From: an uncultured Methanosarcinales archaeon | GTDB lineage: Archaea; Nanobdellota; Nanobdellia; Woesearchaeales; ARS49 | DNA: 64,000 nucleotides | NCBI GenBank assembly: GCA_964353335.1 | Contig: CAYGVI010000003.1 | Coordinates: 130,695 to 194,694 of the forward strand | Direction of reading: 5' to 3' | Shown here: positions 1-49,711 of the stretch, in pieces | Layout: each line of letters opens with the position of its first letter | How positions within the stretch are numbered: position 1 is the stretch's first letter | The notes under the pieces: model-generated | The model's input: the letters and a program-made list of their open reading frames with translations, nothing else | What the model was told of the DNA's origin: nothing | Database searches by the model: none | Position numbers and translations under genes: made by a program

Positions 1-1076
1 TCATAGCGGCATCAATAAACGCGCACACTACTGAGACAATATTCTTTTACGGCTTCGTCATATTCATTTTAATCATCAAGTCACTTCTAAGGAAGATAAA
101 CAAGGCTGAGCTCCTGCAGTTCTTAAAAATACTTGGGCTCGCAACTCTTCTTGCAATCCTGCTGTCAGTAAATTATTTGCTGATTTTTTACAACGGATAT
201 GTCACCGAAAGCGCAAAAAGCTATATTGAATTCAAGCCAGTATCCCCTGAGGCATTTGAAGCAATCCGAGTTCCGCCTTTGCAGGATTTCCACTGGCCGG
301 TTCTTACTGCAATCCTGGTTGGAATAGGCGCGGTTATCCTGCTTATCAGAAAACAGCAGCACACCGCAATCCTGGTTTCAGCATACATGCTTTTGGTCGG
401 CCTTACAAATTACATAGGCATGCATTACCGCGCATTCCAGACAAGGTTCTTTTGGCCAATCTACCTTGCGCTATTTTTCGGGCTGGCATCATACATTGCA
501 GTCCATAAAGTAATAAAAGGAAAATCATTATACTTCATAATCAGCGTCATTCTCGCTGCTGTAATCTTCAACAGCTATTACCAGCCAGTGCATTCAGATA
601 TACCTTATCAAGGCCAATGGGACGGATTCAAGTGGCTAGAGCAGAATACTCCTGCTGATTCCCACACTCTGATGTTCTATGGCGACGGCTACAGCCAAGA
701 CATACGCCTCCTGAAGAGGATAAAATCATCAGTTGAAGTATCCGACTATGAACGTTTCTTGAAATCATTGCCTAACAGGACAATCATAGTGACCCCTTAC
801 ACGGAAAACTACATGAAATACCTACATCGCAAAAGCTTTTTCGAGTTCGGATATTATGTGCCAGAACTAAGCCTTAACCTTGGCGCCCAGCCCGCGGACA
901 TTTGCCAATATGATTATTATTTAATTGACAGGGCAAGCGCTTATGCACCACAACTGGTTCAGGCAAACATACAAATCGCAAACATATTTATCAACCATAA
1001 CATGAGCATCTCATTCCAGAATGATAATGTTGCAATACTGAAAAACAGCAATCCTGGCGGTGAATGCATTGGCTGA
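1..1076 (+). CDS. GT-C-fold integral membrane glycosyltransferase (ArnT/PMT-like), 5'-partial (continues upstream of window)
   Basis: Frame of ORF 177..1076 is open back to position 3 (no stop codon), so it is a truncated gene. It encodes many TM helices followed by a soluble C-terminal domain whose tail ([14 protein letters not shown]) and motif QNTPADS..F.G match paralog 2104..3732. Confidence 0.6.
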   Translation, partial: IAASINAHTTETIFFYGFVIFILIIKSLLRKINKAELLQFLKILGLATLLAILLSVNYLLIFYNGYVTESAKSYIEFKPVSPEAFEAIRVPPLQDFHWPVLTAILVGIGAVILLIRKQQHTAILVSAYMLLVGLTNYIGMHYRAFQTRFFWPIYLALFFGLASYIAVHKVIKGKSLYFIISVILAAVIFNSYYQPVHSDIPYQGQWDGFKWLEQNTPADSHTLMFYGDGYSQDIRLLKRIKSSVEVSDYERFLKSLPNRTIIVTPYTENYMKYLHRKSFFEFGYYVPELSLNLGAQPADICQYDYYLIDRASAYAPQLVQANIQIANIFINHNMSISFQNDNVAILKNSNPGGECIG

Positions 1077-1413
1077 ACTTGCACAAATCAAGCAGGAATT
1101 GAAATGGCTCGCAATTGGCTACATTGCGCTCTCAATAATCATATTCATCGCATTCCAGAAGAGCAGCATCATAGAAATCCTCAGGACAACTGCCAGCCTT
1201 TACTGGATGTTTGTCCTGCCAGGCTACACACTCTCATTATGCTCAAAGCAGGGATTTGTGGACAGGCTTATTATTGGAGTGTCAGTTCAGGCAGCAGTAT
1301 TTGGGCTTGCCAGCTATTATGCAGGCCTTGCAGGCTGGCATATAGCAACCCATGGGATTGTTCTGCCATTGATAAGCATCATAGTAGGATTGATTTTGTG
1401 GTGGAAAAAATGA
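1060..1413 (+). CDS. small 3-4 TM membrane protein (PGYTL motif), partner of GT-C genes
   Basis: 117 aa hydrophobic ORF; paralog of 3723..4070 (shared PGYTL motif); stop overlaps next start (ATGA at 1410-1413). Confidence 0.5.
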
Positions 1414-2102
1414 AAACCTTGTCAATAATAATGCCGGTATTTAACGAGAAAAAGACAATCCGCACAATCCTTAACAAAGTCCAGAAAGCAAAACTTCCTG
1501 TCAGCAAGGAAATCATAATTGTTGATGACTTCTCAACAGACGGCACGCGCAACATCCTGAAAAAGCTGAAAGGAGTCAAAATCTTTTACCACCCGCAGAA
1601 CAGGGGGAAGGGCGCGGCAATCCGCACAGGCTTTGGGCACGCGACAGGAGACATAATCACAATACAGGACGCTGACCTTGAGTACAACCCGCAGGAATAC
1701 GCAAAGCTCCTCAAACCGATTCTTGAAGGAAAGGCAAATGTGGTGTACGGCTCGCGGTTCAAGGGTCGGGCTTTCAGCTACCAGGCTCTTGCAATTCCCA
1801 CGCATTACATCGGCAACAGGTTCCTCTCGCTTGTCACGACATTATTATACTGCCAGTGGGTAAGCGACATGGAGACATGCTACAAGATGTTCACCAAGGA
1901 AGTCCTGCAAACTCTTAACCTGAAAGGAAACAGGTTTGAGATAGAGCCTGAGATAACTGCGAAAATAATGAAGAAAGGCTTCAAAATCCTTGAGCTTCCC
2001 ATAGTTTACCACCCAAGAAAGTGGAACGAGGGCAAAAAAATAAACTGGCGCGACGGAGTAAAGGCATTGTATTACCTGATGAAGTACCGCATAAGAGACT
2101 GA
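1410..2102 (+). CDS. GT2 glycosyltransferase, dolichyl/polyprenyl-phosphate sugar synthase (Dpm1-like)
   Basis: [33 protein letters not shown] motifs typical of GT2 DPM/DPG synthases. The real start is the ATG at 1410; the N-terminal 100 aa of the track ORF 1104..2102 is out-of-frame overlap with the previous gene. Confidence 0.85.
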
Positions 2103-2103
2103 T

Positions 2104-3732
2104 ATGGAGCGCGAAGAAATATTCACAATAATTGCAATCCTCGCAATAGTCTGCCTTGGATTTTTCGCAAGATATGCCCCATACAGCAGCGCAATAATCC
2201 ATAATTTTCCTGCAACAATAGGCGCAGGAGACCCTAACTCAAGGCTTAGCGAAGCAGAATACGTGCTTGAGTCAGGAAGCGCAAAGTTCATGCCTCCCTG
2301 GTTCACAGGCGAAAAAGACCTTATGACAACACAGCCGCCATTGAACCTCATAATCGCAGCAATGGTTGCCGGCGCTTCTGGAATAAACGTCTTTGATGCA
2401 TTCTACCTTGACGCAGTCCTTGCCTCAATCGGGGTTGCATTGTGCTTTTTTGTCCTGTTCTCAAGGATTTTCAAGAACAAAACCATGGGGCTTGTTGCGG
2501 CAGCAGCACTGATTTACCCCCTTGAGGAGTTTTTCAGCTATCAGATTAATATTGGAATGTATGCAAACTACTCAACAATACTTTTTTACCCGATAATTTT
2601 GTTGTTTGCTTATGAATTTTCATCAAAGCCATCCTGGTCAAATGCATTTTTGCTTGCTTTGGGCTTTGCAATGCAGTTTTTGATGCACTCAAGCGAAGCA
2701 GTTGTGTTTGGAGCAGCAGTTGGCTCTTACCTTTTGATTTTTGAGCACAAATCAATAGGCTGGAAAAAGCTAATTGGCGCAGGAATAATCTTTGCAGTCC
2801 TTATTGCGCCTTATTTTCCAATACTTTACTCAAACTTTATCCTGGCAAACTTTGGCGGAGAAGGTGAGGAAAGCTCGATTTTCCAGGGCAAGGAGATAAC
2901 AGCCCCAAGCTATGAGCCCCAGATTTTCCTCACAAATGTTGTCCACCCTGTGCTTTACATTCTCCTGCTACTTGCAATCGTCCTGACTTGGAAGAAAAAG
3001 GAATTCCGCTTCCTTAACTACATTTTCCTTTTCTACATCGCCGTTATTTTCATCCTTGCCAAGTTCGGCATAGGCACTTACTACGTCACAATCCGCACAA
3101 GGCCAATATTTTTCGTATTTACATATCCCTTAGTCGCAGTCGGTCTTTACACCCTTGCATCAAGCATCAGAAAATTCCTGCCTGTGAAAAAGGAAATATT
3201 TTTCACAGCACTTGTTGCCCTTCTGGTTATTGGACAAGGCTACCTTATCCACAAAGAAGCCCAGCAGCGCCAGGGAATTTTCACAGAAGATGCCTACAAA
3301 GGCTTCCAGTGGGTGAAGCAAAACACCCCTGAGGACTCAACAGTGCTTTGCTTTGGCTGCCAGCAGTTTGAAGGCCTCACATCACACCGCGTTATTGCCC
3401 AGCCAATGTATTGGGACGAAAGAAGCGTGAACCAGATGGCTGGCTTTGCCACAAACAGCACAAACTCTTCATTATGGCTTGAGCTTTGCGGCTATTCTGA
3501 CCAGCGCCTTGCAAAGAAAGGCTTGTTTGGGTTTGAAAAGCGCGGAATAACCGGCTATCATGAAAGTGACATTTGCGGGTTTGACTATTTCATAATCAAG
3601 CCTTATGGCAATGCAGGCCAATTGATGGTGCAAATAGGCCAGAGACTTTTGCAGAACAATGCAACACAAGCGTATTCAAACAACAATCTTGCAATCCTGA
3701 AGAATAACAACAAGGGAGGGAAGTGCATATGA
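2104..3732 (+). CDS. GT-C-fold integral membrane glycosyltransferase (ArnT/PMT-like) with C-terminal soluble domain
   Basis: 542 aa, about 11 TM helices, acidic residues in the first extracytoplasmic loop (GDPNSRLSEAEY), C-terminal about 190 aa soluble domain ending NNNKGGKCI like paralog 1..1076. Confidence 0.7.
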   Translation: MEREEIFTIIAILAIVCLGFFARYAPYSSAIIHNFPATIGAGDPNSRLSEAEYVLESGSAKFMPPWFTGEKDLMTTQPPLNLIIAAMVAGASGINVFDAFYLDAVLASIGVALCFFVLFSRIFKNKTMGLVAAAALIYPLEEFFSYQINIGMYANYSTILFYPIILLFAYEFSSKPSWSNAFLLALGFAMQFLMHSSEAVVFGAAVGSYLLIFEHKSIGWKKLIGAGIIFAVLIAPYFPILYSNFILANFGGEGEESSIFQGKEITAPSYEPQIFLTNVVHPVLYILLLLAIVLTWKKKEFRFLNYIFLFYIAVIFILAKFGIGTYYVTIRTRPIFFVFTYPLVAVGLYTLASSIRKFLPVKKEIFFTALVALLVIGQGYLIHKEAQQRQGIFTEDAYKGFQWVKQNTPEDSTVLCFGCQQFEGLTSHRVIAQPMYWDERSVNQMAGFATNSTNSSLWLELCGYSDQRLAKKGLFGFEKRGITGYHESDICGFDYFIIKPYGNAGQLMVQIGQRLLQNNATQAYSNNNLAILKNNNKGGKCI

Positions 3733-4070
3733 GCCTGAAATACCTTGCAGGAGCAGTAATTGCAGTCCTTGCCCTTACAACTTACTTTTCAGGCAGTATT
3801 TCAGAAGGATTCATACTCGGCATCTCCCTGATAATGCTTGGGCTGATTCCAGGCTACACTTTGCTTACTTTCCTCATGAAAGACCTTGAAGAGCTTGAAA
3901 AAACAATACTGGGATTCTTCATTGGCATCTGCTCAACTGCAATGCTGTTGTACTACCTTAATTTCATCGGCATTGCAAGCATAAAGCCAGTATTCAGCTA
4001 TGGCATTGGAATAATCTGCCTTGCTTTGCTCGCGGTAAAAAAGTTTAAACAGCCAAAAAAGGTGCAATAA
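3723..4070 (+). CDS. small membrane protein (PGYTL motif), paralog of 1060..1413
   Basis: 115 aa, 3-4 TM; same position relative to a GT-C gene as 1060..1413. Confidence 0.5.
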   Translation: MHMSLKYLAGAVIAVLALTTYFSGSISEGFILGISLIMLGLIPGYTLLTFLMKDLEELEKTILGFFIGICSTAMLLYYLNFIGIASIKPVFSYGIGIICLALLAVKKFKQPKKVQ

Positions 4071-5134
4071 TGTACCAGACAAGAACAATATTCAAGCCGT
4101 TTCTGCTTTTGACTGACATAATTGGCTATGTTTTTTTCTTCTGGCTCAAGTTCAGAAGGGTTCCAGAGCCTAAAAAGATTCTTTGCATTAGGATTGACCA
4201 CATTGGAGACGTGCTTCTCACAACCCCTGCATTCAGGGCTCTTAGAAAGCGCTATCCAAAGGCAAGGATTGATGTGCTTGTGCGCTCTTTTTCAAAAGAA
4301 ATACTTGACGGCAACAAAAACATCAGCAAAATTCTCACTTTTGACTTTCCCTGGCTTGGCTTGCACGGCAAAAAAGCATCCTGGAAAGAAACAATTAGCT
4401 TCATAAAACAGCTAAGAAAGGAAAAATATGATATCGCCATTGATTTCCACGCAGACCCGAGGAATATCTGGCTCGCAACAAAGGTCGCAAAGTACAGGAT
4501 TGGATATGGAATACGCGGATTTGGCTTCCTACTAAACAAAGTAGTGCCTTACAAGCCAGCAAGACACCAGATTCAGAGAAATTTTGACCTTGTCCGCGCG
4601 CTTGGAGCCAATGCAAGCCAAGAAATGGATTTCATAATCCCTGCATCTGCAAAAACAAAGGCAAAATCACTTCTCAAGCAGGCTGGAAATGCAAAACTTG
4701 TTGGAATTACTCCAGCAACAGGAAGAAAGCCAAAATACTGGCTTAATGAACGCTGGGCGCAGGTTGCCGATGCACTTGTTGACAAATATGGAGTAAAAAT
4801 AGTGCTTACAGGCGGAAAAGGAGATGCTAAAGACATTGAAGAAATAATCAGCAATATGACCCACAAAGAAAATATCATAAATCTTACAGGAAAAACATCG
4901 CTGAAAGAGCTTGGGGCAGTTATCCAGCAGTGCAGTCTCTTCCTAAGCCCTGACACAGGCCCTGCTCACATTGCAAGAGCGCTGAATGTTCCGCTACTTG
5001 AGCTCTTTGGCCCTGAAAATCCAAAGCAGTGGGGCTATAACGAGCCAAAGTTCAGGCACATAAAAAAAGACAAAATGGAAGACATAACAACAGAAGACGT
5101 AATTTCTGCAGTCAAACAAATGAGAGCGCTTTAA
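4070..5134 (+). CDS. GT9 family glycosyltransferase (ADP/GDP-heptose heptosyltransferase, RfaF/WaaC-like)
   Basis: ILCIRIDHIGDVLLTTPAFRALRKRYP...GITPATGRKPKYW...LTGKTSLKELGAVIQQCSLFLSPDTGPAHIA: canonical GT9 heptosyltransferase motifs. Confidence 0.85.
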   Translation: MYQTRTIFKPFLLLTDIIGYVFFFWLKFRRVPEPKKILCIRIDHIGDVLLTTPAFRALRKRYPKARIDVLVRSFSKEILDGNKNISKILTFDFPWLGLHGKKASWKETISFIKQLRKEKYDIAIDFHADPRNIWLATKVAKYRIGYGIRGFGFLLNKVVPYKPARHQIQRNFDLVRALGANASQEMDFIIPASAKTKAKSLLKQAGNAKLVGITPATGRKPKYWLNERWAQVADALVDKYGVKIVLTGGKGDAKDIEEIISNMTHKENIINLTGKTSLKELGAVIQQCSLFLSPDTGPAHIARALNVPLLELFGPENPKQWGYNEPKFRHIKKDKMEDITTEDVISAVKQMRAL

Positions 5135-13453: not shown

Positions 13454-13472
13454 TTGACGGCTGACCTGCATA

Positions 13473-13482
13473 ATCTTTATAA
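13473..13482. promoter_or_regulatory. palindromic TATA box (CTTTATAAAG) for divergent GT2 / GT-C genes
   Basis: Lies 25 nt from the leaderless ATG at 13453 on the minus strand and upstream of the SD-containing GTG start at 13529 on the plus strand. Confidence 0.4.
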
Positions 13483-13528
13483 AGCTATGCCTTGTGGAAA
13501 TTCCACTCATAATGACGAGGGGGGCATA

Positions 13529-15139
13529 GTGAACTGGAAAGAGTTTCTGGCATCGCCGCAGGCTTGTATCCTAGCTTTAGCAGCAGTATTCATTGTACTG
13601 AGACTTTTTGCACCCACGCCTTTCTACTATGTTGGCGCTGATGAAGCACGTTATTTGGCGCTTGCGCACAATTTCCCTCACCACACAATGCATGGCGGAA
13701 CTTTGTTCTTGCAGCACATGCCAATGTATCCGTATCTTATCGCAATAACCACTTTCGTTCTGCAGAATGACCTAGCAACAGGACTCATAGTGAGTTTTGC
13801 AATGAGCATATCTGTTCTCGCAATACTGCTTAAACTCTTTAAGACAGAAGCAAAAACCAACACCTGGTTTTTCCTTTTTTCACTGCTTTTCAGCCTTAAC
13901 TGGGCTCTTGTTGAATTATCTCGAATCGTATTCAAAGAAACCACATATATTGCATTTTGGTGGTCTGCGATTGCATTTTACTGGCTGGGCTTGAAGAGAT
14001 CGCCAAAATGGCTCTGGCTTTCAGGCATTTTTGCAGCCTTGACTGCTTTTGCTTCTGACCAGGTGATTTTCCTTTTCCCAGCAATGCTCATCACGCTTTT
14101 CCTTATTCCATCCAAAAGAGCAGGATGGCACAAGTACATTCCAATCGTGATCGGGGGCATAGCTTATGCGTTGTGGATTGCAATAAGACTGCAGTTCTAC
14201 ATGACCCACACATTTGCCCCTGTGGGAATTGACGGTATTATTGAGGATGTTTCGCAGTTCACGCCAGGCAACTTGCTTAATGTTTTTTCTTTCCCTGAAT
14301 CAGACAGGCTTTCGCTAGCAAGCGGTTTCAATAATCCCCTGCAAATAGCGGCAAATCTTGGCTACCTGCTTGATACGTATCCTTTTCTTTTCACCCCAAA
14401 CTTGTCCAGAGCAATGCTTGGAAGCGTTTTTACTGTTAAGAATGCCCTGGTTGCGATAATCTGGTACATCCCGCTTCTGGTGCTTGGTGCATTGTGGCTT
14501 TGGAAAAGGGCAAAACAGTTTGTGAAAGAAAAGAAATTATTGAATAACACAGACCTTATTTTTGCAGCATATTTGATTTTGCTTGTTCTGCCAATTCTAT
14601 CTGGGGTGGGCAACTGGCGGCACATAATCCTTTCAGTCATCCCAGTCCTTTACTTTGAAACCCAGGCATTGTTCATGCTTTTCAATAAGTTCATGGAAAA
14701 AGAGCCAGTAAGGGTTGGCTTTGTCATCCTATCTGCACTGTTTATTGTCTGCTGGATAGTAGCACACCCGCACTTTTCGCTCGGCGCACAGAAAATCGTG
14801 CAGGGCAATAGCGTTGCAAATGAACTAAGAGCATTGCCTGGAGACGGAATCTTTGTGCAGACTGGCTACAGCATGGAGCTGGACTACCTGCTTCCAGAAA
14901 AGCGCGTTTATGGAATTGTCTCAAACTCAACCAACCTGCAGAAATACATCAAAGAATTCAATATCTCTTACCTTGTGCTCGGCAACAAGACATGGGCTCC
15001 TGCTGATGAGCCATCGCTTGATTTCATACGCGCCCATCCTGAATTATTTGCCCCAATCAAGACAGTGAACGAGCGCTATCCTATAAACAGCATCGTGCCT
15101 GATGTTTACACAATTTACCAAGTTAAAACCAAAAAATGA
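13529..15139 (+). CDS. GT-C-fold glycosyltransferase, ArnT/PMT (GT39/GT83)-like
   Basis: Multi-TM protein with an early-loop motif (DEARYLALAHNF) characteristic of the ArnT/PMT family. Start set at GTG 13529 (RBS GAGGGGGG at 13516-13524). The track ORF from TTG 13454 would overlap the divergent GT2 gene. Confidence 0.7.
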   Translation: MNWKEFLASPQACILALAAVFIVLRLFAPTPFYYVGADEARYLALAHNFPHHTMHGGTLFLQHMPMYPYLIAITTFVLQNDLATGLIVSFAMSISVLAILLKLFKTEAKTNTWFFLFSLLFSLNWALVELSRIVFKETTYIAFWWSAIAFYWLGLKRSPKWLWLSGIFAALTAFASDQVIFLFPAMLITLFLIPSKRAGWHKYIPIVIGGIAYALWIAIRLQFYMTHTFAPVGIDGIIEDVSQFTPGNLLNVFSFPESDRLSLASGFNNPLQIAANLGYLLDTYPFLFTPNLSRAMLGSVFTVKNALVAIIWYIPLLVLGALWLWKRAKQFVKEKKLLNNTDLIFAAYLILLVLPILSGVGNWRHIILSVIPVLYFETQALFMLFNKFMEKEPVRVGFVILSALFIVCWIVAHPHFSLGAQKIVQGNSVANELRALPGDGIFVQTGYSMELDYLLPEKRVYGIVSNSTNLQKYIKEFNISYLVLGNKTWAPADEPSLDFIRAHPELFAPIKTVNERYPINSIVPDVYTIYQVKTKK

Positions 15140-16920
15140 AAACCAACATAAAAATACTGCTGTTAATACTGGTGCTTGCGATTGCATTGCGCCTGCCAAG
15201 CATAAATGACCCTTTGTTTGGTGATGCAATCCAGTTGGAGCGCTGGTTCTGCACAGGACAGTTCTGGTTTACAGATACAGGCCACCCAAGCCTTTTTGGC
15301 TGGCTTACAAATGCTTCATGCATTCTCTTCGGGGTTCATCATTGGGCAATCCGGCTGCCATTTTTGCTTATTTCACTGGCAACCATCCTATTGACTTATT
15401 TTTACGGCAGGAAATTTATTTCAGAAAATGCAGGATTGCTTGCAGCACTGCTTCTTGCAGTAAGCCCGTGGTATGCTGGCGTTGGTATGGGCACAGGTCC
15501 TGATAATTACCTTGTGCTTTTCTTTGCGTTCGGAATCCTTGCATACCGCTCATGGCTAGATACAAAAAGTAAAATACGAATGGCAGTGCTTGCTCTTGCA
15601 TTCGGACTTAGCTTAATCACAAAAAGCGCAGCTGCGCTTTTGCCTGGAATAATTCTCGCGCACCAGCTCTGGCTCATAATCAAAAAACAGCAGAACTGGA
15701 AAGAGACCCTGAAGCTCTGGCCAATGCTGCTTGGATTTGTGATCCCGATTATTTATTACTCAATACAGCAGGCGATGGGCGCCACATTATTCACAAATTA
15801 CACAATACACCGCACTGCAATAAAGCTGATTACTGCAGGAGGATACAGCTTTCCAATATCGTCCTGGGTTCTTGCGGTAGTGATGGCATCCCCTGCATTT
15901 TTCGCACTGCTTGCGCTCATGCTTGCCAGGCGCCCTGACAATGAAAAGCCGCTTCTATGGGCTTGGATTATTATCCCTGCATTTGTTTATTCTTTCCTGA
16001 TAGTCCACAACAATATTGAGCGCTTCCTGCACGTTGCTCTTCCGGCAATGGTCCTGTTGATAAGCGAAGGCATTACCAGCATTAGCAGCAATGAACTGCG
16101 CAATTTTGTCAAAAGAAAATATAATATTTTACTCGGAATTGCTAGCGCCCTTACACTTTTGTTGTCATATTTCCTGCCAAACCCGAACAGTTATGCCACA
16201 CCGTATTATTCAGCTTCTGCATACCTTTCAGCATTGTTAAGCCCCTCAAAATATCTTTTCCCGATAATCAGCGATATTGAGCCAACTTATTATCTGCCGA
16301 TGCTATTTGTAATCTTTTCAGGAATTTTGGCGGTGGCGTGGTTTGCAGCTGCGCTTTACGGAATTTTCACGTACAAAAAACAATTGTTAAAAATGGCGCT
16401 GATTATGCTTCTGGTGACATGTGTTACAACAAACCTCATTGTCCTAGCAGAACAGCATTTGTCAATCAAGGGTCCTGATATTCCTGAGATGGCAAAAGTC
16501 GCTGACAAAGCAATCAGTCAGTATGCTGGAAACAAGTCCCTGCTGATTATTGGAGCCCATCAGGTTGATTACCAATGGCGCAATCAGCCAAAAGGCAGCC
16601 AGTTTTCAGGCAATCCTGCAAACCTGACCTTGCTATTTTTGAGCATAAACCAAACAGAAGCCCAGAAGGAAGGCGGGGTATATGTTGACCCTGTGACAGG
16701 CCTGCGAATCCAGAAATCAGGCATAATTCTGCTGCGCTCTGAAAAGGAATTTGAACTTTTGAAAGAAAAGGCACTGAAAGCTGATTTGGTGCTTTTCGAA
16801 GATTATCCGCCATTGCCAGAATATAATCCGATAAAGCAGGCTATCAGCACTTGTAGAAAGCTTGGAAGCGTCCAGGACAAGGGCTTGGTATTCTCGATGC
16901 ATGCCTGCAAAAGTCCATAA
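15136..16920 (+). CDS. GT-C-fold glycosyltransferase, ArnT/PMT-like, with C-terminal soluble domain
   Basis: 594 aa; RLPFLLISLATILLTYFYGRKF..AVSPWY typical of the ArnT/PMT_2 family; ATGA overlap with the upstream gene. Confidence 0.75.
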   Translation: MKTNIKILLLILVLAIALRLPSINDPLFGDAIQLERWFCTGQFWFTDTGHPSLFGWLTNASCILFGVHHWAIRLPFLLISLATILLTYFYGRKFISENAGLLAALLLAVSPWYAGVGMGTGPDNYLVLFFAFGILAYRSWLDTKSKIRMAVLALAFGLSLITKSAAALLPGIILAHQLWLIIKKQQNWKETLKLWPMLLGFVIPIIYYSIQQAMGATLFTNYTIHRTAIKLITAGGYSFPISSWVLAVVMASPAFFALLALMLARRPDNEKPLLWAWIIIPAFVYSFLIVHNNIERFLHVALPAMVLLISEGITSISSNELRNFVKRKYNILLGIASALTLLLSYFLPNPNSYATPYYSASAYLSALLSPSKYLFPIISDIEPTYYLPMLFVIFSGILAVAWFAAALYGIFTYKKQLLKMALIMLLVTCVTTNLIVLAEQHLSIKGPDIPEMAKVADKAISQYAGNKSLLIIGAHQVDYQWRNQPKGSQFSGNPANLTLLFLSINQTEAQKEGGVYVDPVTGLRIQKSGIILLRSEKEFELLKEKALKADLVLFEDYPPLPEYNPIKQAISTCRKLGSVQDKGLVFSMHACKSP

Positions 16921-17664: not shown

Positions 17665-18371
17665 AAGAATTTGATTATGAAACAATTGACCCCGGATACT
17701 ACCACCGCGCAATGCTGCACGGCAACAAGATACAGAGGTTCTGGCATACCTGGAAGTTTGCCATCGTAGCAGAAAGAATTTCGCATAAAAAAACAACCGT
17801 TGTTGATATTGGGTGCGGTCCTGGCAGTTTTTTTTATGTTCTCAGGAAGAAAAACAAGGATGCAATTCTTATTGGAACTGATTTAATGCTGAAACAATTG
17901 GAATTCGCGAAAACAATAGCACCTGACGCCCACTGGTTTGCCTCTGATGCAACAAAACTCCCTTTAAAGACTGGCGCGATTACTACTTTCACAATGCTTG
18001 AGCTGATTGAGCACCTTCCTTATGCCACAGAGCGTGAAATGCTCGAACAAATTCATAAATCGCTTGCTCCGAATGGCAGGATAATCATCACAACACCCAA
18101 CTATCATTCGTTATGGCCGCTGATTGAATGGTTCTGGAATATCATGTCTCCTGTCAGCTACAAGCACCAGCATATTAACAGAAAGACAATGCCAAAACTT
18201 GCAAGAAGCCTGCACAATGCAGGTTTCAAGGTCGAGAGCATAAAGACATTCTTTGTGCTCTCCCCATTTTTCGCATTTATTTCACCGCGTTTTGCAGAAT
18301 GGCTTTTGCGTATTGAGCAGAAATACCTGCCCGGTCTTGGGGCTTGCATCATTGCAGAGGCAACTGCATGA
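17661..18371 (+). CDS. class I SAM-dependent methyltransferase
   Basis: VVDIGCGPGSF motif I; Methyltransf_11/23-like. Confidence 0.75.
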   Translation: MKEFDYETIDPGYYHRAMLHGNKIQRFWHTWKFAIVAERISHKKTTVVDIGCGPGSFFYVLRKKNKDAILIGTDLMLKQLEFAKTIAPDAHWFASDATKLPLKTGAITTFTMLELIEHLPYATEREMLEQIHKSLAPNGRIIITTPNYHSLWPLIEWFWNIMSPVSYKHQHINRKTMPKLARSLHNAGFKVESIKTFFVLSPFFAFISPRFAEWLLRIEQKYLPGLGACIIAEATA

Positions 18372-20035
18372 GATCGTACCAGATTTTTTGGGTTATTCTT
18401 GCAGTCGCATTATTTCTCCGGGTTTGGACTCTGGGCACGCCGTTCACTTCTGATGAAAATCCCTGGCCTTATGCGGCTGCAGACCATTCAAATGCAGGCT
18501 TTAACTTTGTGATTGACCGCGGTTTTGACACTTTTGTCTGGACATCCCCGCCATTGGCGCCTCTTGCTTACAGGTTTTTCACATGGTTTATCGGCGTGAA
18601 TGAAATAACCATGCGCCTTCTCCCTCTCATTATCGGTCTTATCAACATCTGGCTCACATATTTGCTTGCAAGAAAGTTGTTTGACCCCAAAAGCGCGGTT
18701 TTTGCTGCGGGCTTGATGGCGGTTTCTTTCTGGCACATACTTGCATCATTCCTGATTGAGCATGACAGCTCAATCCTCACACTGTTCTGGCTGCTTTTTT
18801 TCCACAGCTGGCTCTTGTTTGAAACAACAAGAAAGACAAAATGGCTTTTTGGATGCGGAATTGTGCTTGGTCTTGCTTTATTGACAAAGCTCACAGGCGG
18901 CTTGATGCTTATTGCTCTCGCGGTTTACCTTGTCTGGAAGCACGGCTCGCTGAAAGAACCTGCAATCGCTTGCGCAAAAATACTGGGCATAGGCGCGGCA
19001 ATGTTTGCAGTATTCCCTATCCTTTCAATGCTTATTTATCCTGCGTATATCAAGGAGACTTTCATCCATGCAGGCGTGCTCACCTTTATCCCCTCATTGT
19101 TTTCGCCAATAAGAATCATAATTTATCTTCTGCTCTGGGCAACTCCTTTGCTTACTGGCCTTGCTCTCCTGTCTTTGTTTGAGCCTGACAAGCGCGCCAG
19201 GCTTTTGTGGTGCTGGGCAGGCGCAGTGATTTTGTTTTATACTTTGACAAAATACTTTGGCGCCATTGACCGGTATATGGCGGTTATGATTCCTGCGTTG
19301 TGCATTCTTGGAGGGCGTGAGCTGGCAAAGCGCCTTGAATTCAGGGATTTGAAAAAAGTCCTTCTTATTGCCCTGCCGTTCCTTGTATTGTTTATCCTGC
19401 TCAACTTCATTCCAAGCAGCTGGATTGAGCACAACACCGCAACATACATCGGCAAGGCGTTGACTTTTGACTGGGCTTTTATTTTCCAGTTCTGGGGCAG
19501 CGGCGGTCCTGCATTCATGGCATCATTCATTCCATTGGGCGCAGGGATTTTATTGTGCCTGCTTTCATTGGCACTATTCGTTTATGCAATTCATTCGGAA
19601 AAAGAAAAGGCAATTCAGAGGTCTTTTGTTCTTTTTGTCGCGGTTGCTTTGGCATTTAATTTGTTCATTGTTCAGGCTTTTGTCACAAAAGAGCCGTATC
19701 CTGATGTTGGCAGTGCCACAAAAGGGATTATTGCTGAAATGAAAATCCTTCCTGAACCGTTTTACGCAAATGACATGAATCTTGCTTGGTACATTGACCG
19801 CAAGGCAGACTTTTATGTTATCGGCGATGTTTATACTGATGAACAAAAGGAAGTCGACCAATTGAGTGCGATAATCCAACGCAGAGGGGGCACGCTCATA
19901 ATTACTGACTATCCCAAATACTTAAAAACAGACCCGATATGGCAGTTGGCAGGCGAGTGCAAATTGCAGAAGACATTTGGAAGCAAAGAAATCATGCTTG
20001 GTTACGTGTTTGCTTGCCCACCTCATGCAATATGA
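18344..20035 (+). CDS. GT-C-fold glycosyltransferase, ArnT (4-amino-arabinose transferase)/GT39-like
   Basis: 563 aa, about 12 TM; N-terminal loop and TM pattern of the ArnT family (RLLPLIIGLINIWLTYLLARKLF). Confidence 0.8.
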   Translation: MHHCRGNCMRSYQIFWVILAVALFLRVWTLGTPFTSDENPWPYAAADHSNAGFNFVIDRGFDTFVWTSPPLAPLAYRFFTWFIGVNEITMRLLPLIIGLINIWLTYLLARKLFDPKSAVFAAGLMAVSFWHILASFLIEHDSSILTLFWLLFFHSWLLFETTRKTKWLFGCGIVLGLALLTKLTGGLMLIALAVYLVWKHGSLKEPAIACAKILGIGAAMFAVFPILSMLIYPAYIKETFIHAGVLTFIPSLFSPIRIIIYLLLWATPLLTGLALLSLFEPDKRARLLWCWAGAVILFYTLTKYFGAIDRYMAVMIPALCILGGRELAKRLEFRDLKKVLLIALPFLVLFILLNFIPSSWIEHNTATYIGKALTFDWAFIFQFWGSGGPAFMASFIPLGAGILLCLLSLALFVYAIHSEKEKAIQRSFVLFVAVALAFNLFIVQAFVTKEPYPDVGSATKGIIAEMKILPEPFYANDMNLAWYIDRKADFYVIGDVYTDEQKEVDQLSAIIQRRGGTLIITDYPKYLKTDPIWQLAGECKLQKTFGSKEIMLGYVFACPPHAI

Positions 20036-20553: not shown

Positions 20554-22025
20554 GATGCAATCCAAGCGATTTCTTCCCTGCTGACGATTTTCAGCGCAAG
20601 CAAAAGCAGGCAGTATGCAATTCCGCCTGCAAAAGCGCCGATAGCAAGTTCAATCCACGGGTTTAATGACAGCAATGCCTTTACCCCTGAAATTATTCCT
20701 GCAAGGATTATTGCTGCAAGAAGTGTCTTTGCCCAGACCACCCATGGCTCGCGGATTCTCAAAATCCGTCTTATTCCGCGCGAACTAAGCGCAAGCATGA
20801 GCAAATAGCTGAGCGATGTTCCGCAGGCAGCGCCGATTATGCCAAAACGCGGGACAAGCGCGAGATTAAGAATTACATTTGCAACTGCTGAAATGAGCAT
20901 TATTGTTGTGGTGTATTTGGGCCTGCCAAGGCCGAAAAGCGCATTAAGGTTTGTGTAAGCAATAGAGTAAAGCACCATGCCACCCGCAAGAATCTGGAGT
21001 GCAGGCGCTGAATTGATGAATTTGTCCCCAAAAAACAGCCTGATAAAAATTTCAGGGAATGCAATAAGAACCACTGCCATTGGAATTATTGCAATAAACA
21101 CATACTTGTGCAGGAATTCTATTCCTTTTCTCAATTGAATCCGCTTTTTTAGCGCGAGCAGTTCTGATATCAGCGGTGTGGCAACTGCAGATACTGAATA
21201 CGCAACATAAAGCACAAGCCCTGCAAGAGGCGCCGCAACCTGATAAAGTCCGACGCTTGCCAGGTCCTTGAAATAACTGAGCATTAGTGTGTCTGTGTAT
21301 TGCAGGACATTATTGCCGAAAATTGTAAGCATTGCCGGAAGCCCGAAAAGGATAAGGCGGGAAAAGTCCTGTCCTGCAAGCAGTGCGTGCGCTTTCCAGA
21401 ATTGTTTGAACACTTTTTTTGTGAACAGGAAGAAAAAGAACAAAAATACAACCACATACATTATCAGGTAAGCCCAGACCGGTGCAAGAATGCCAAAACC
21501 AAGCCATAAAAGCACAAAAGAAATTGCAAGCACAACAAGGTTTCTCGACAGGTCCTGCAATGAATAAAGAAACATCCTTTGGAAACTCTGTAATCCAATA
21601 GAAACAACATTTTGGGCAAAAGAAACAAAAAATATTATGGCAAATAAAATCAATAATTTGGTATCGCTTGTGTGAAAGAATGTAGGCATTATTTGAGGGG
21701 CAAATGTTATCAGCAGGAATGCAATGATTGCTGAGGAAAACAACTGTATAAGGAAGCTTGATGAAATCAGCGATTTTATCCTGTTCCAGTCTTTTTTGAC
21801 AATAAGCTCTGGAATGAATTTCAGCAGTGCATATCCCTGCCCAAGGTCCTTGAACAAGACCAGCAGGTTTATGAAAGAAAATAATGCGAAGAAAAGCCCG
21901 TAGTCTTCAATGCTGAGTTTCCTTGCGAGCAAAAACCTGAGAAAATACGCGGACAATGCCGCCATAAGTGTAAGAACAAAGACAGTTGCTGCGCCATGAA
22001 GCGCTTTTTTTGCATAAGACACCAT
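20526..22025 (-). CDS. Wzx/MOP-family polysaccharide flippase
   Basis: 499 aa, about 14 TM; typical polysaccharide biosynthesis protein C-terminal architecture. Confidence 0.8.
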   Translation of the reverse strand: MVSYAKKALHGAATVFVLTLMAALSAYFLRFLLARKLSIEDYGLFFALFSFINLLVLFKDLGQGYALLKFIPELIVKKDWNRIKSLISSSFLIQLFSSAIIAFLLITFAPQIMPTFFHTSDTKLLILFAIIFFVSFAQNVVSIGLQSFQRMFLYSLQDLSRNLVVLAISFVLLWLGFGILAPVWAYLIMYVVVFLFFFFLFTKKVFKQFWKAHALLAGQDFSRLILFGLPAMLTIFGNNVLQYTDTLMLSYFKDLASVGLYQVAAPLAGLVLYVAYSVSAVATPLISELLALKKRIQLRKGIEFLHKYVFIAIIPMAVVLIAFPEIFIRLFFGDKFINSAPALQILAGGMVLYSIAYTNLNALFGLGRPKYTTTIMLISAVANVILNLALVPRFGIIGAACGTSLSYLLMLALSSRGIRRILRIREPWVVWAKTLLAAIILAGIISGVKALLSLNPWIELAIGAFAGGIAYCLLLLALKIVSREEIAWIASHFGLRRAK

Positions 22026-22061
22026 GCACCCAAGTCCGTGAATATGCTATATAAAGATTAT

Positions 22062-22258
22062 GGACGACCACAACATTTTAAAACAGGGTCTGGCTTGCCT
22101 TCAGTCGTGGAAGAGCAGCCAAAGAAAGTGTGGAACTGGCAAGTCAAGGCAGCCATTATTGCAGTTATACTGTATCTCGGGGTTGCGCTGTCCTTGTACA
22201 TGAAGCTAAAGCACCTGCCCGGGCCTTATTATGGCGGAGACCTTTATGCCCACCATGG
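22062..22258 (+). repeat. direct repeat copy L (truncated 5' fragment of gene 26747..28540), about 95% identical to 26768..26964
   Basis: Nucleotide identity visible directly (ggacgaccacaacattttaaaa ... tttatgcccaccatgg). Encodes GRPQHFK..VEEQPKKVWNWQVKAAIIAVILYLGVALSLYMKLKHLPGPYYGGDLYAHHG, then diverges and stops. Confidence 0.85.
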
Positions 22259-22408
22259 GTTTTGTGCTTGAAAAAATCTGTGTAGTAATGGCAGGTGGAT
22301 CCTGCGAATCAAGGGTGATTTAACACATTTAGCTTTTTAGCCGTTGCTGATCATTTGCCTGTCAGCAAAGCAAGCGTTACTGCTTATTTATGCAAATCGC
22401 ATAGAAAA

Positions 22409-26648: not shown

Positions 26649-26746
26649 CGCTGCAAGAAGCAAAAGGACCAACAATGTTGCCGTGAAGCGCTCGGCAGGT
26701 ATATGAAACCATATTCTAATTGCCGTTCACACAATATATACCGAGT

Positions 26747-28540
26747 ATGGATAAGGCGTGCAGCTTCGGACGACCACAACATTTTAAAATAGGGTCTGGC
26801 TTGCGTTTGGCTGTGGAAGAGCAGCCAAAGAAAGTGTGGAACTGGCAAGTCAAGGCAGCCATTATTGCAGTTATACTGTATCTCGGGGTTGCGCTGTCCT
26901 TGTACATGAAGCTGAAGCACCTGCCCGGCCCTTATTATGGCGGCGACCTTTATGCCCACCATGGATTTGCGCTCAACTACATGGCAAACGGTTTCTGGAG
27001 CGACCCGTATTTCATCAATAATTACTCATTTTATCCCTGGCTTGGCAACTACATATTCATCGCGCTCAACCTTTTGCCAGGCATAACTGTGTTAAAGGCT
27101 GAAATGTTTGTCGGGCTTGCCACAACAATACTCTCAGCAATTGCATATTATTTTCTTGGAAGGCAGCTTTTCAAGAGCGACACCTGGGCGCTTGTGCTTA
27201 TGCTCTTCTCGCTTGTCACAAGAGGGATTCCTGACGGCGCGCCCAACCTTGTGCCATGGATGATTACGATTCCTTTCTGGTTTGCCTTCTGGCTCAAGGC
27301 AGAGGAAACAGGAAAACTGCGCGACAAGGCTCTTGCAGGATTGTTCATGGGCCTTACAAGCCTTGCCCACGTGGCATTTTTTCTTGCGGGAATGGCGGTT
27401 TTTGCTTTTACAGCAGTGGTTGAGACTTTAAAGCAGAAAGACAAGAAGCAAGCAGTTGTTGCCGCGTTCAGGCTGTATGCTCCAATGCTCATAGTCGGAT
27501 TTTTCGTGTCCCTACTGTTCTATGGACCGATAATTATCAATTATCATGCAAAGACCCTTAACCCGCTTTTCCAGTACAATGGCACTGACATTGACAACCT
27601 TGGAATTGGCTGGGTGATCAAGACGCTTTGGAACGCGACACTTAACTTTTCCTCAATTCCCGCCGCAGTCCTTAGCATACTCAGCATTATCGGGCTTGTG
27701 GTCTGCATGATGAACTGGAACAAGAAAGCGCCAAGATATGCTGTGCTTTGGTATATCGCAGGCTTTCTTGCGCCGCTGCACCACATTATCACAAGGCCTT
27801 TGCTTGGCAGGTGGATACTTCCATCACACCTCTTTGCGCTTGCCCTTCCATTGCTGATATTCGCAGTCTACGGTGTCCGCGCTGTTGAACAGTTCGCAGC
27901 CAGAAAATCCCCCAATTCGAAGCGCATTGTCGCGATTGGAGTCATAATCCTTGTGCTCCTCCTGTTCTGGCAGCGCTATAATGACTACAATGCAAATCCA
28001 TGGGTGCAGTTTGGCCAGCGCCTTGACCCTTCAACACAGGCATGGATGTCATTTGGGGTGTGGATGGAGAAAAACACAGGCATTAATGACGTTGTGCTGA
28101 GCAATGACGAGACATGCTTTGCGATGAACGGCATGAGCGGAAGAAAATGCGTATTTGTGCGCAGGACTCACGCGAACTACTTTGTTGATGTTGAGCAGAG
28201 GTATGCAGACGGAGTTGTGATGCTCTATGGCAACAACAGCGCTTTGACAAGCAGGCTTCTTGGCGATTACAAGGTGGACTATGTGCTTATTGACGCATAC
28301 ATGCAGCAGCAGCCTGTGCTTTTGGACGCGAAGTTTGAACAGTATTTGCTTGATAACAATGTAACATTCACAAAGATACGCGAGCGCAAAGACCTTTCAG
28401 TCCCTGATGCAAAAGTGTTTGACCTTCTTGCTGTTCCTTTCCAGCAGATTAACAAGGCGCTTGAGTCAAAGCTCAGCCCTGCCACAGAAGCAAATATCGG
28501 CACACAGGCGTATCTCAAGCTGTACAGGATAAATAGGTAA
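26747..28540 (+). CDS. large polytopic membrane protein, putative GT-C-like glycosyltransferase/polymerase
   Basis: About 598 aa, >10 TM with soluble C-terminal region; N-terminal TM AAIIAVILYLGVALSLYM. The start (ATG 26747 or the GTG of VWNW) is uncertain. Confidence 0.5.
   Translation: MDKACSFGRPQHFKIGSGLRLAVEEQPKKVWNWQVKAAIIAVILYLGVALSLYMKLKHLPGPYYGGDLYAHHGFALNYMANGFWSDPYFINNYSFYPWLGNYIFIALNLLPGITVLKAEMFVGLATTILSAIAYYFLGRQLFKSDTWALVLMLFSLVTRGIPDGAPNLVPWMITIPFWFAFWLKAEETGKLRDKALAGLFMGLTSLAHVAFFLAGMAVFAFTAVVETLKQKDKKQAVVAAFRLYAPMLIVGFFVSLLFYGPIIINYHAKTLNPLFQYNGTDIDNLGIGWVIKTLWNATLNFSSIPAAVLSILSIIGLVVCMMNWNKKAPRYAVLWYIAGFLAPLHHIITRPLLGRWILPSHLFALALPLLIFAVYGVRAVEQFAARKSPNSKRIVAIGVIILVLLLFWQRYNDYNANPWVQFGQRLDPSTQAWMSFGVWMEKNTGINDVVLSNDETCFAMNGMSGRKCVFVRRTHANYFVDVEQRYADGVVMLYGNNSALTSRLLGDYKVDYVLIDAYMQQQPVLLDAKFEQYLLDNNVTFTKIRERKDLSVPDAKVFDLLAVPFQQINKALESKLSPATEANIGTQAYLKLYRINR
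26768..26964 (+). repeat. direct repeat copy R (inside the 5' end of gene 26747..28540)
   Basis: About 95% identical to 22062..22258. Confidence 0.85.
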
Positions 28541-42006: not shown

Positions 42007-42013
42007 TTGCAAA

Positions 42014-42085
42014 GCCTCCGGAGGGAGTTGCACCCTCGACCTCGACCTTACGAGGGTCGCGCTATAGCTACTAAGCTACGGAGGC
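42014..42085 (-). tRNA. tRNA-like gene, putative tRNA-Thr(CGU), non-canonical D/T loops
   Basis: Cloverleaf with 7-bp acceptor, 5-bp anticodon stem, loop CTCGTAA, 5-bp T stem. However C19 and G55 violate the G19-C56 and G18-Psi55 tertiary pairs. Confidence 0.45.
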
Positions 42086-42250: not shown

Positions 42251-42303
42251 AATGCTTTCACGTCAGCGAGGATTTATAAATGTCACGTTTTAAAATAGTG
42301 TTT

Positions 42304-44064
42304 ATGCCACGAATAGCAATTGTGCACAAGGAAAGGTGCAACCCAAAAGGGTGCGGCGGATACCTGTGTATGCGCATCTGCCCGATGAACAGGCAGGGAT
42401 TGGAATGCAAGACCATTGACCCTGTTGACCAGAAGATTCGGATAAATCCAGAACTAACGTCAGATGCCTGCAGTATTTGCCAGAACCGCTGTCCTTTTGG
42501 CGCGATAAGCATTATCAAGCTTCCTGAAGAGCTTGCCAAACAGCCAGTCCACCAATATGGAACAAACGGATTCCATCTTTACAATCTTCCAATGCCTGTT
42601 TTTGGAAAAGTTGTTGGAATTGTCGGAAGGAACGGCATAGGAAAATCAACAGCGATAAAGATTCTTGCAGGGCAGTTAATTCCAAACCTTGGCACTGAGA
42701 AAGAAGCAAGCCACAGTGAGCTTCTGGAATATTTTAAGGGCACAGAAGCGCAGGTGTTTTTTGAAAAGCTTGCGAAAGGGGAAATAAAAGTCAGCTACAA
42801 GCCCCAGCACATTGACCAGATTCAGAAAAATGCAAAAGGAAAAGTCAAGGATTTGCTTGACAAGGTAAATGAGACAAAGAAGCTGATAGAAGTTGCAAAA
42901 GCCCTTGGCATAGACCACATTCTCAACAATGACATTGCAAATGTTTCTGGCGGTGAGATGCAGAGGATTGCGATTGCAGCGACAGTGCTTAAGAAGGCAA
43001 ATTTGTACATTTTTGACGAGCCATCATCTTATTTGGACATAAAGCAGAGAATTAATGTCGCGAAATTCATCAAGGAGCTTGCCAATGAGCAGACTGCAGT
43101 GCTTGTTGTTGAGCACGACCTGATTATTCTTGACTACATGACAGACCTTGCGCACATAATGTTCGGAGAAGAGGGCTCTTATGGAATTGTAAGCGTTCCA
43201 AAGCCGGCTCGCAATGGAATTAACAGCTATCTCGAGGGCTTCATCAAAGAGCAGAACATGAGGTTCAGGCCTTACTCAATCACTTTCTTCTCACGCCAGC
43301 CAGGACAAAAGAAGTTTGCCAAGAAATTAACAAACTGGGATGAAATAAAGAAAAAACTTGACCAGTTCTCGCTCGATATCCAGCCAGGAAGCGTGAATGT
43401 GCACAGTGTTGTTGGAATTCTTGGTGAAAACGGCACTGGAAAGACAACTTTTGTGAAAATGCTTGCAAATGTCCTGAAGCCTGATGCAGGAAGCGTTGAA
43501 ACTCCTGTCAAGGTCGCTTACAAGCCCCAATATCTTGATTCATCATCAGAAGAATCAGTCAGCATTGCCCTGCAAAATGCTGTTGGCAAGTACGAAGTCC
43601 AGCTTATCCGCCCTCTTGACATCAAGCACTTGCTGCTCAAGAACATGAACACTCTTTCAGGCGGAGAATTGCAGCGTGTTGCAATTGCACACTGCCTCTC
43701 GCAGGAAGCAGAGCTTTACCTGCTTGATGAGCCATCAGCATATCTTGACGTTGAACAAAGGCTGGCGGTTGCAAAGACAATAAAGGACATTGCAGAGCAG
43801 CGCGGTGTGACAATTATGGTTGTTGACCACGACTTAATGTTCCTTGACTATCTTGCAGATGAGCTTATGGTCTTTGCCGGCAATCCTGGAAAAGAAGGCA
43901 AGGCAACCGGTCCTTTTGACATGGTGAGCGGAATGAACAACTTCCTCACAGAAATCGACATCACGCTCAGGAGAGACGAGGAAAGCAAGCGCCCAAGAAT
44001 AAACAAACCCGGCTCACGCCTCGACCGCGAACAGAAAGAAACCGGCAAACTCTATTACACTTAA
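42304..44064 (+). CDS. abcE1: ABCE1 / RNase L inhibitor (ribosome recycling factor)
   Basis: N-terminal 4Fe-4S ferredoxin-like Cys clusters (CNPKGCGGYLCMRICP; CSICQNRCPFGAI) plus two ABC ATPase domains. Start at MPRIAIV (42304), 30 nt from the TATA ATTTATAAA. Confidence 0.9.
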   Translation: MPRIAIVHKERCNPKGCGGYLCMRICPMNRQGLECKTIDPVDQKIRINPELTSDACSICQNRCPFGAISIIKLPEELAKQPVHQYGTNGFHLYNLPMPVFGKVVGIVGRNGIGKSTAIKILAGQLIPNLGTEKEASHSELLEYFKGTEAQVFFEKLAKGEIKVSYKPQHIDQIQKNAKGKVKDLLDKVNETKKLIEVAKALGIDHILNNDIANVSGGEMQRIAIAATVLKKANLYIFDEPSSYLDIKQRINVAKFIKELANEQTAVLVVEHDLIILDYMTDLAHIMFGEEGSYGIVSVPKPARNGINSYLEGFIKEQNMRFRPYSITFFSRQPGQKKFAKKLTNWDEIKKKLDQFSLDIQPGSVNVHSVVGILGENGTGKTTFVKMLANVLKPDAGSVETPVKVAYKPQYLDSSSEESVSIALQNAVGKYEVQLIRPLDIKHLLLKNMNTLSGGELQRVAIAHCLSQEAELYLLDEPSAYLDVEQRLAVAKTIKDIAEQRGVTIMVVDHDLMFLDYLADELMVFAGNPGKEGKATGPFDMVSGMNNFLTEIDITLRRDEESKRPRINKPGSRLDREQKETGKLYYT

Positions 44065-49538: not shown

Positions 49539-49612
49539 AGCCGCGGGAGGGATTTGAACCCTCACGTGATCGCTCTGCAGGCGATTGCCTTGCCGGATTT
49601 GGCTACCGCGGC
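49539..49612 (-). tRNA. tRNA-Cys(GCA)
   Basis: Canonical cloverleaf, anticodon loop CTGCAGA, TTCAAAT T-loop, discriminator U73. Confidence 0.85.
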
Positions 49613-49711
49613 GGACAATACTGTGTTGCTGTGACGTCTTTAAAAAAGTATCTCACAAAGCAGTGTTTTCCCTGAAACATTTATAAAGCCTCTAAAACCA
49701 GTATGTTTCAT

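Follow-up and report, generated by a model that had tools for sequence, protein, structure and literature searches.

What is the role of a small membrane protein whose gene is found, on two occasions, to overlap the end of a gene for a putative membrane-embedded glycosyltransferase? The question is raised by bases 1-5134 of the window, i.e., the whole 64,000-nucleotide (nt) stretch of contig CAYGVI010000003.1 analyzed here, which represent a single, tightly packed plus-strand operon segment harboring two such cassettes, GT-C1/small1 and GT-C2/small2. An earlier interpretation made from the DNA letters (here called the sequence-only reading) had described the cassettes as a tandem duplication, put the small proteins forward as candidate GtrA-like flippase or accessory subunits, and suggested that each pair forms an obligate heteromeric transferase. 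We propose that the small protein, a member of what is termed here the PGY family, is an integral membrane subunit of its cognate GT-C protein in a split, two-subunit enzyme, a reading held with moderate confidence and based on sequence comparison, most of all with single-chain relatives in which a homologous module is fused to the glycosyltransferase body.

Both small proteins carry the motif PGYTL, as had been noted previously. Compared directly, they match weakly (BLASTP, E=0.012); a hidden Markov model (HMM) of the small1 family retrieves small2 over its full length as the best non-self match among the 416 six-frame open reading frames (ORFs) of the window (E=2.8e-4), and with hhalign, the small2 family scores 96.7% against a profile built from 109 family sequences (E=4e-10), while control transmembrane (TM) blocks remain below 10%. 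Profile comparison thus identifies small1 and small2 as true homologs, with a similarity which exceeds shared hydrophobicity. When 1.84 billion proteins were searched exhaustively with the small1-family HMM, 299 representative clusters passed E<=1e-3, 168 of them also E<=1e-10, and the best 150 clusters all consist of free-standing proteins of 79 to 190 amino acids (aa). The family consensus reads ...FWLFVLPGY...L.FLER.IIG....A..GI.SYYLGL.GL..KYH..LP, in which the P, G, R, Y, G, and P positions, including the proline and glycine of the PGYTL motif, are at least 90% conserved. Orthologs of small1 (27 proteins at 61 to 100% identity) and of small2 (70 to 96% identity) are present in related genomes. 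Four helices are indicated for small1 by both hydropathy and an AlphaFold2 (AF2) model, in which helix 2 is kinked at P51-G52. PGY is, on this evidence, an unannotated family of 4-TM proteins: no small protein scores above the Pfam gathering threshold for DUF1616 or DUF6541, and below it, 11 of the 109 members match positions 3 to 72 of DUF6541 (best E=3.5e-5) and 3 of the 109 match the DUF1616 N-terminal region (best E=0.0037).

The evidence which carries the proposed assignment comes from proteins in which the two components are covalently joined. A profile search with the GT-C family returned at least 11 proteins, among which P0191 (652 aa) matches the N-terminal part of Pfam DUF1616 across residues 9 to 88 (E=8e-8, motif FLLPGWALL), the remainder being a DUF6541 body with a WVRQNTPE motif, as is observed in the cassette GT-C proteins. 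Scanning of metagenomes revealed 327 relatives of P0191 in which an LLPG(W/Y)ALL TM module precedes the DUF6541 body, and 80 of these were retrieved. Similarity between the small-family HMMs and P0191 alone is at the level of the motif, significance being reached only with the profile of the fused family. Against the N-terminal module of the fused proteins, the small-protein profile A3 scored 96.3 to 96.7% (E 4e-10 to 1.5e-9), A1 scored 95% (E about 2-4e-8), and A2 (small2) scored 83 to 92% (E 6e-7 to 9e-6), whereas B_small, representing the sister lineage B described below, scored 35% (E 3.9e-4). All other 120-residue TM blocks of the fused proteins and every Woesearchaeal GT-C block scored below 10% against the small-protein profiles. 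In the reverse direction, an HMM of the fused module matched only small2 (1.1e-6) and small1 (4.9e-3) among the ORFs of the window.

The large proteins account for the other part of the fused chain. Aligned with the fused family, a profile of the Woesearchaeal GT-C proteins scores 99.5% (E=2.4e-22), and the alignment places residue 7 of GT-C2 against residue 117 of P0191, immediately behind the module. In DUF6541, GT-C2 begins at position 95, unlike some PGY family members, which match, below threshold, the first 70 or so positions of this domain. The small proteins are specific homologs (about 96%) of the N-terminal TM module of DUF1616+DUF6541 GT-C proteins. A further candidate fusion, P0188 (644 aa), was rejected, its extra length being a low-complexity N-terminal extension rather than the module. 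Many fused proteins (L071-L102) possess, ahead of the PG(W/Y) module and after a signal- or lipoprotein-like start, an additional segment of approximately 170 to 200 aa, which is apparently extracytoplasmic.

The association of the free-standing small protein with a GT-C partner extends beyond the window. A motif-seeded scan (motif-selected subset A4) with one genome per species yielded 57 loci, which were assessed by ORF calls and HMMs, adjacency being counted on 53 DPANN loci. A GT-C homolog adjoins the small gene at 52 of these 53 loci, while a GT2 gene adjoins it at three and is absent within 6 kb at 20. In 56 lineage-A pairs, the small gene is located directly downstream of the GT-C gene with position and strand conserved, and 54 of these pairs overlap. 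Thirty-two further cassettes, usually convergent with the first, define sister lineage B, in which a gene for a 448- to 603-aa protein (7 to 10 TM helices) is followed, with overlap in 32 of 32 pairs, by one for a 104- to 143-aa protein (4 TM helices, LP.Y motif). The large proteins of lineages B and A match at 99.5% (E=8e-23), and the small proteins match at 96.9% (E=1.3e-10). The fixed pairing claimed by the sequence-only reading is, therefore, observed far more widely than at the locus from which it was deduced. The 57 loci are in records titled Woesearchaeota or Nanoarchaeota/Nanoarchaeia, with the exception of metagenome-assembled genomes (MAGs) titled "uncultured Methanosarcinales" which possess the same locus type. 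As the loci in the latter records (L007, L009, L011-L016, and others) are indistinguishable from those of Woesearchaeota and Nanoarchaeia, these titles may be placeholders or mislabels.

Partners have also diverged together. GT-C1/small1 belongs to lineage A and GT-C2/small2 to lineage C, which was found only in window-like genomes; the closest lineage to lineage B, the third, is C (B_big versus GT-C2, E=1.2e-14; B_small HMM versus small2, E=1.2e-8). Across 87 pairs, the similarity matrices of the GT-C and small proteins correlate with r=0.89, a value reached in 0 of 2,000 permutations, and independent clustering of the partners produced identical partitions (adjusted Rand index [ARI] of 1.0 for k=2-4). 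Because the lineages of the two partners coincide, the cassettes must have been duplicated as units. A recent tandem duplication was rejected, as blastn detected no DNA similarity between the two window cassettes, and the duplication is, by the same token, considered ancient. The duplication proposed by the sequence-only reading is thus upheld at the protein level and not at the DNA level, and the two cassettes are not contiguous, since a 230-aa GT2 gene which had been missed lies between them.

Because the PGY-like module is fused to the GT-C body in relatives, a "Rosetta stone" relationship, the free-standing proteins are best explained as parts of a split heteromeric enzyme. The support for the previously suggested obligate heteromeric transferase is genomic. 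The overlap of the genes would couple their translation, so that the GT-C and the small protein would be made in step. The small protein would then assemble in the membrane with its own GT-C, a complex to which homology, synteny, co-duplication, and fusion all point, and the assembled enzyme would work on the external side of the membrane. Its donor there would be a dolichyl-phosphate-sugar, probably produced by the TM-less GT2 whose gene separates the cassettes, and the sugar would be passed to a surface glycan or glycoprotein presumably built by the surrounding island, which encodes GT9s, heptose functions, and Wzx (and, in relatives, AglB). The small protein is predicted to adopt an N-in/C-in topology on account of the positive-inside rule, together with the fact that the basic C-terminal end of the module leads into GT-C helix 1 in the fusions. 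More tentatively, PGY may be a portable accessory module of this whole GT-C branch, fused in many bacteria and present as a split, co-evolving subunit in DPANN archaea, which is required for activity, for instance as part of the site at which the lipid donor enters; this extension is deemed possible rather than probable.

Several observations weigh against the split-enzyme interpretation. The module is N-terminal in the fusions, yet the gene order in the window is GT-C followed by small, meaning that the split cannot be a simple gene fission. In DUF1616 proteins, the module is also joined to an ectodomain that is not a GT-C, and its role may, as such, be more generic. Lineage-B small proteins, as noted above, match the fused module weakly (35%), and the AF2 model of the small protein is of moderate confidence (predicted local distance difference test [pLDDT] of 73). 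Moreover, co-duplication and co-divergence are to be expected of any tightly linked gene pair and are no proof of contact by themselves.

Assignment of the large proteins to the GT-C fold relies on structural modeling. The portion of GT-C1 visible in the window shares 27% identity with GT-C2 over 236 aa (BLASTP, E=2e-17), and the full-length GT-C1 ortholog of relative L001 (541 aa) aligns with GT-C2 from end to end at 24% identity (E=8e-30), in agreement with the paralogy which had been proposed for the two pairs. GT-C2 matches Pfam DUF6541 (PF20176) with 37.6 bits against a gathering threshold of 29, in addition to a weak PMT_2 match, and the lineage-B large protein of L004 likewise exceeds the DUF6541 threshold (35.3 bits), while no Pfam match was obtained for the lineage-A large proteins (GT-C1 of L001 and A_big of L004), whose homology was established by BLASTP and hhalign. 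Since searches of the PDB by sequence, with GT-C2 alone or with a 45-sequence profile, returned no true relative, the fold was determined using AF2 and Foldseek. The model of GT-C2 (pLDDT 77.7; predicted template-modeling score [pTM] 0.79) retrieved GT-C enzymes as all of its top 33 PDB matches, encompassing STT3, PglB, AglB, AftA, DPY19, ALG9, ArnT, Pmt4, AftD, and Emb folds, with a lowest Foldseek E-value of 4e-8, for STT3, and a TM-score of 0.56 for ArnT. The large proteins are accordingly modeled as GT-C-fold glycosyltransferases with a multi-TM core and an extracytoplasmic C-terminal domain, for which the fold and the neighboring AglJ/Dol-P-hexose-synthase-like GT2 would imply a polyprenyl-phosphate-linked sugar as the donor.

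Conserved residues are distributed across the large proteins. D43 and H195 are invariant among 45 family sequences from three lineages, and W403, N407, C491, and C541 are nearly so in the family. D43 is situated in the first extracytoplasmic loop (GAGDPNS; family consensus SDAF), at the place of the conserved acidic residue of GT-C enzymes, and its counterpart in the fused proteins is a GDSY motif. The shared C-terminal tails and the QNTP.DS motif highlighted by the sequence-only reading are genuine: a 15-residue tail in GT-C1 corresponds to ...LAILKNNNKGGKCI in GT-C2, and both the tail (consensus ...ILKN...G..C) and the W..QNTP.DS motif are family-wide. C491, within a DICGFDY motif, and C541, the penultimate residue of the conserved tail, are both located in the C-terminal extracytoplasmic domain and may form a disulfide, which would explain the conservation of the extreme C-terminal tail.

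The foremost alternative is that the small protein is dedicated to flipping or scrambling the dolichyl-phosphate-sugar donor, i.e., serves as a functional analog of GtrA or ArnE/ArnF which feeds the adjacent GT-C. Once the missed GT2, which has no TM segment, is counted along with the GT-C and the 4-TM protein, the window does hold the complete parts list of a three-component glycosylation system. In size and in their four helices, the small proteins resemble GtrA (approximately 120 aa) and SMR-type candidate flippases; a GT2 gene lies within 6 kb at only 33 of the 53 loci. In the arn operon, the gene for the GT-C enzyme ArnT is directly followed by arnE and arnF, which specify small 4-TM proteins of the SMR/EamA type, an order that appears to resemble that of the cassette. 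PGY proteins, however, display no SMR/EamA signal in sequence or fold: the SMR and EamA Pfam models match neither the small proteins of the window nor any of the 109 family members, and a Foldseek search of the PDB with the small1 model returned nothing below E=5, with none of its seven matches being an SMR transporter. Nor could the GtrA-like assignment of the sequence-only reading be sustained, as neither small1 nor small2 matched GtrA (PF04138) at E<=1, nor did any family member among the 109 at E<=0.01, and no EmrE-like fold was apparent. Specificity, furthermore, follows the GT-C and not the GT2, with a single GT2 present for two cassettes in the window and few or no GT2 genes beside the small gene elsewhere. 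Covalent fusion of the module to a GT-C is more readily reconciled with a subunit than with a free transporter, even though a module built into the enzyme to load the donor is conceivable. Taken together, a flippase role is considered unlikely. The GtrA/GtrB/Gtr* (GtrC), CsbB/GtcA/YfhO, and GacI/J/K/L systems are composed of the same parts, namely, a polyprenyl-phosphate-sugar GT2, a small multi-TM protein, and an external GT-C, and their GtrA and SMR-type candidate flippases are themselves described as "proposed" and are unproven (PMC11127046). PGY proteins differ in belonging to none of the GtrA, SMR, and MATE families and in being paired 1:1 with a GT-C rather than with a GT2, while the GT2 of the window, unlike GtrB, lacks TM helices.

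It might otherwise be supposed that the small protein anchors or activates the TM-less GT2 in the membrane, in the manner of GacJ/Rv3632 (DUF2304) with GacI/PpgS or of DPM2/DPM3 with DPM1. GacJ-type proteins are likewise small membrane proteins (approximately 113 aa) whose gene overlaps that of a TM-less GT2, which they bind and stimulate, with fusions existing in some taxa (10.1101/180810), and the GT2 between the cassettes is devoid of TM segments with its start overlapping the small1 stop. Such a role is, nevertheless, improbable, since DUF2304 proteins partner a GT2 whereas PGY proteins partner a GT-C (52 versus 3 of 53 loci), and the gene which follows small2 encodes a GT9 rather than a GT2. 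In addition, none of the 109 family members matches DUF2304 (PF10066), for which a genuine representative in L001 scores 76 bits, no sequence relationship was found between the families, and a separate, bona fide GT2+DUF2304 pair coexists with PGY in relatives, upstream of the cassettes. The last possibility, that the small ORFs are chance hydrophobic ORFs or resemble one another in composition only, as the weak direct BLASTP match might suggest, is effectively refuted by the 299 clusters with their conserved positions, by the contrast between the profile match and the control blocks, and by the retention of position and strand in 56 pairs.

The split-enzyme reading may be set beside known systems in which a GT-C does not act alone. 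The fused DUF1616-N+DUF6541 proteins resemble the cassette in the GT-C body, the first-loop Asp, and the W..QNTP motif, as well as in the PG(W/Y) TM module (about 96%); they differ in that their module is covalent and N-terminal, while in the cassette it is encoded by a separate gene after the GT-C, with one extra N-terminal helix and co-duplicated lineages. Among eukaryotes, there are GT-C catalytic subunits which need a separate membrane subunit, as in the glycosylphosphatidylinositol mannosyltransferase I (GPI-MT-I) pairs Gpi14-Pbn1 and PIG-M-PIG-X (PMC12653191), and the oligosaccharyltransferase (OST) complex surrounds the GT-C STT3 with partner subunits, OST structures being among the fold matches of GT-C2. 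The partners in GPI-MT-I and OST are unrelated to PGY in both sequence and topology.

In the literature searched (DUF6541, DUF1616, and Woesearchaeota/GT-C), nothing was found on DUF6541, DUF1616 appeared only as a table entry, and there was no description of the GT-C+PGY pairing, nor of a prokaryotic GT-C, archaeal ones included, to which a co-evolving 4-TM subunit is dedicated; where prokaryotic GT-C enzymes are discussed there, they appear as single catalytic polypeptides. The PGY proteins, a family tied to one GT-C branch by overlap, co-duplication, and fusion, present a concrete, testable case of a split GT-C; an obligate second subunit, were the portable-module extension correct, would be a first among prokaryotic GT-C enzymes. 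The family also provides an initial lead on the function of two domains of unknown function, DUF6541 and the N-terminal module of DUF1616, and extends the sparse knowledge of how uncultured DPANN archaea glycosylate their surfaces. Small membrane proteins encoded beside GT-C genes are routinely called "flippase" without evidence, and the present case serves as a warning that the GtrA label should not be transferred from size and neighborhood alone.

The features of the window are compiled in Table 1.

Table 1. Coordinates of the cassette genes and of other features of the window mentioned in the text
Feature	Coordinates	Strand	Description (basis)
GT-C1	1..1076	+	C-terminal 357 codons of a predicted GT-C-fold glycosyltransferase of ~541 aa, lineage A (translation, homology, clustering)
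small1	1069..1413	+	114 aa, 4 TM helices, PGY family, lineage A (orthologs, hydropathy, AF2)
GT2	1410..2102	+	230 aa, no TM segment, AglJ/Dol-P-hexose-synthase-like (Pfam, NCBIfam, hydropathy)
GT-C2	2104..3732	+	542 aa, predicted GT-C fold, Pfam DUF6541, lineage C, related to lineage B
small2	3729..4070	+	113 aa, 4 TM helices, divergent PGY-family member
GT9	4070..5134	+	Heptosyltransferase-like, Pfam Glyco_transf_9 2.8e-38; operon context, outside cassette
GT-C-like	13454-15139		Further island membrane protein
GT-C-like	15136-16920		Further island membrane protein
GT-C-like	18344-20035		Further island membrane protein
91-aa ORF	21996..22271		Contains upstream repeat copy
Direct repeat, upstream copy	22062-22262		201 nt
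GT-C-like	26720-28540		Further island membrane protein
Direct repeat, downstream copy	26768-26968		201 nt
tRNA-Thr(CGT)	42013-42085		
ABCE1/RLI-type ATPase	42280-44064		
tRNA-Cys(GCA)	49539-49612		
tRNA-Arg(TCT)	49711-49787		
Topoisomerase VI subunit B	51225-52865		

GT-C1 is truncated by the left edge of the window and is read in frame from base 3 to a TGA stop at 1074-1076. The start of small1 is either TTG 1069 or GTG 1060, resulting in an overlap of 8 or 17 nt with the GT-C1 stop, and the GT2 gene in turn overlaps the small1 stop as ATGA. In the second cassette, the small2 start is most likely ATG 3729-3731, which overlaps the GT-C2 stop (TGA 3730-3732) as ATGA and is preceded, 8 nt upstream, by the Shine-Dalgarno sequence GGAGGG, rather than GTG 3723 as given in the sequence-only reading, whose observation that both small genes overlap the GT-C stops nonetheless holds. 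The GT2 product matches Pfam Glycos_transf_2 (1.3e-36), exhibits no hydrophobic segment in its hydropathy profile, and is related to the NCBIfam models AglJ (1e-35), PpgS (2e-17), and Dol-P hexose transferase (8e-16), all under the equivalog cutoffs. The GT9 gene, the start of which overlaps the small2 stop by 1 nt, matches NCBIfam heptosyltransferase III (5e-43), also under the cutoff. This GT9 is a single 354-aa ORF in the window and is called as two ORFs (232 and 98 aa) in three relatives (L001/L002 10395-11367 and L003 6795-7767), which may reflect a frameshift or pseudogene.

The operon segment forms part of a surface-glycan island. On its 3′ side are encoded an AsnB-type amidotransferase, an (alpha/alpha)-toroid-like protein, and a Wzx-type flippase, as well as nucleotide-heptose functions, methyltransferases, and further GT2 and GT-C (PMT_2) proteins. 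The gene order is identical in close relatives, which are Candidatus Woesearchaeota MAGs and in which the preceding genes are AglB(STT3)-GT2-DUF2304-GT9-heptose genes-GT9. In L001/L002 (positions 1-1454), an AglB/STT3 of 1,101 aa with an FKBP_C domain is followed by a TM-less GT2 (228 aa) and its genuine DUF2304 partner (76 bits), which together constitute a GacI/GacJ-type pair in an archaeon. In many Woesearchaeota loci, a 744- to 808-aa protein with 10 to 13 TM helices (Pfam PTPS_related; DUF6541 in L009) is encoded directly upstream of the lineage-A cassette, without a small partner of its own (e.g., L004 1167-3473, L006 2165-4411, and L009 2162-4396).

Four additional GT-C-like membrane proteins are encoded within the island, three of which match PMT_2 or PMT, and within the window none of these genes, the PMT_2-type ones included, is followed by a small 4-TM gene. 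The last of the four is weakly related to the cassette GT-C proteins (E=4e-9). Its 5′ end is duplicated in a direct repeat of 201 nt (95% identity), the upstream copy of which lies in a 91-aa ORF. The approximately 4.7 kb between the copies is occupied by nucleotide-heptose genes, most of them on the minus strand (GHMP kinase, nucleotidyltransferase, GT2, and methyltransferase), and a gene for a GmhB-like phosphatase, an arrangement which suggests an insertion or rearrangement. Further along the window, three tRNA genes and the genes for an ABCE1/RLI-type ATPase and topoisomerase VI subunit B represent archaeal housekeeping functions, thus confirming a chromosomal archaeal context.

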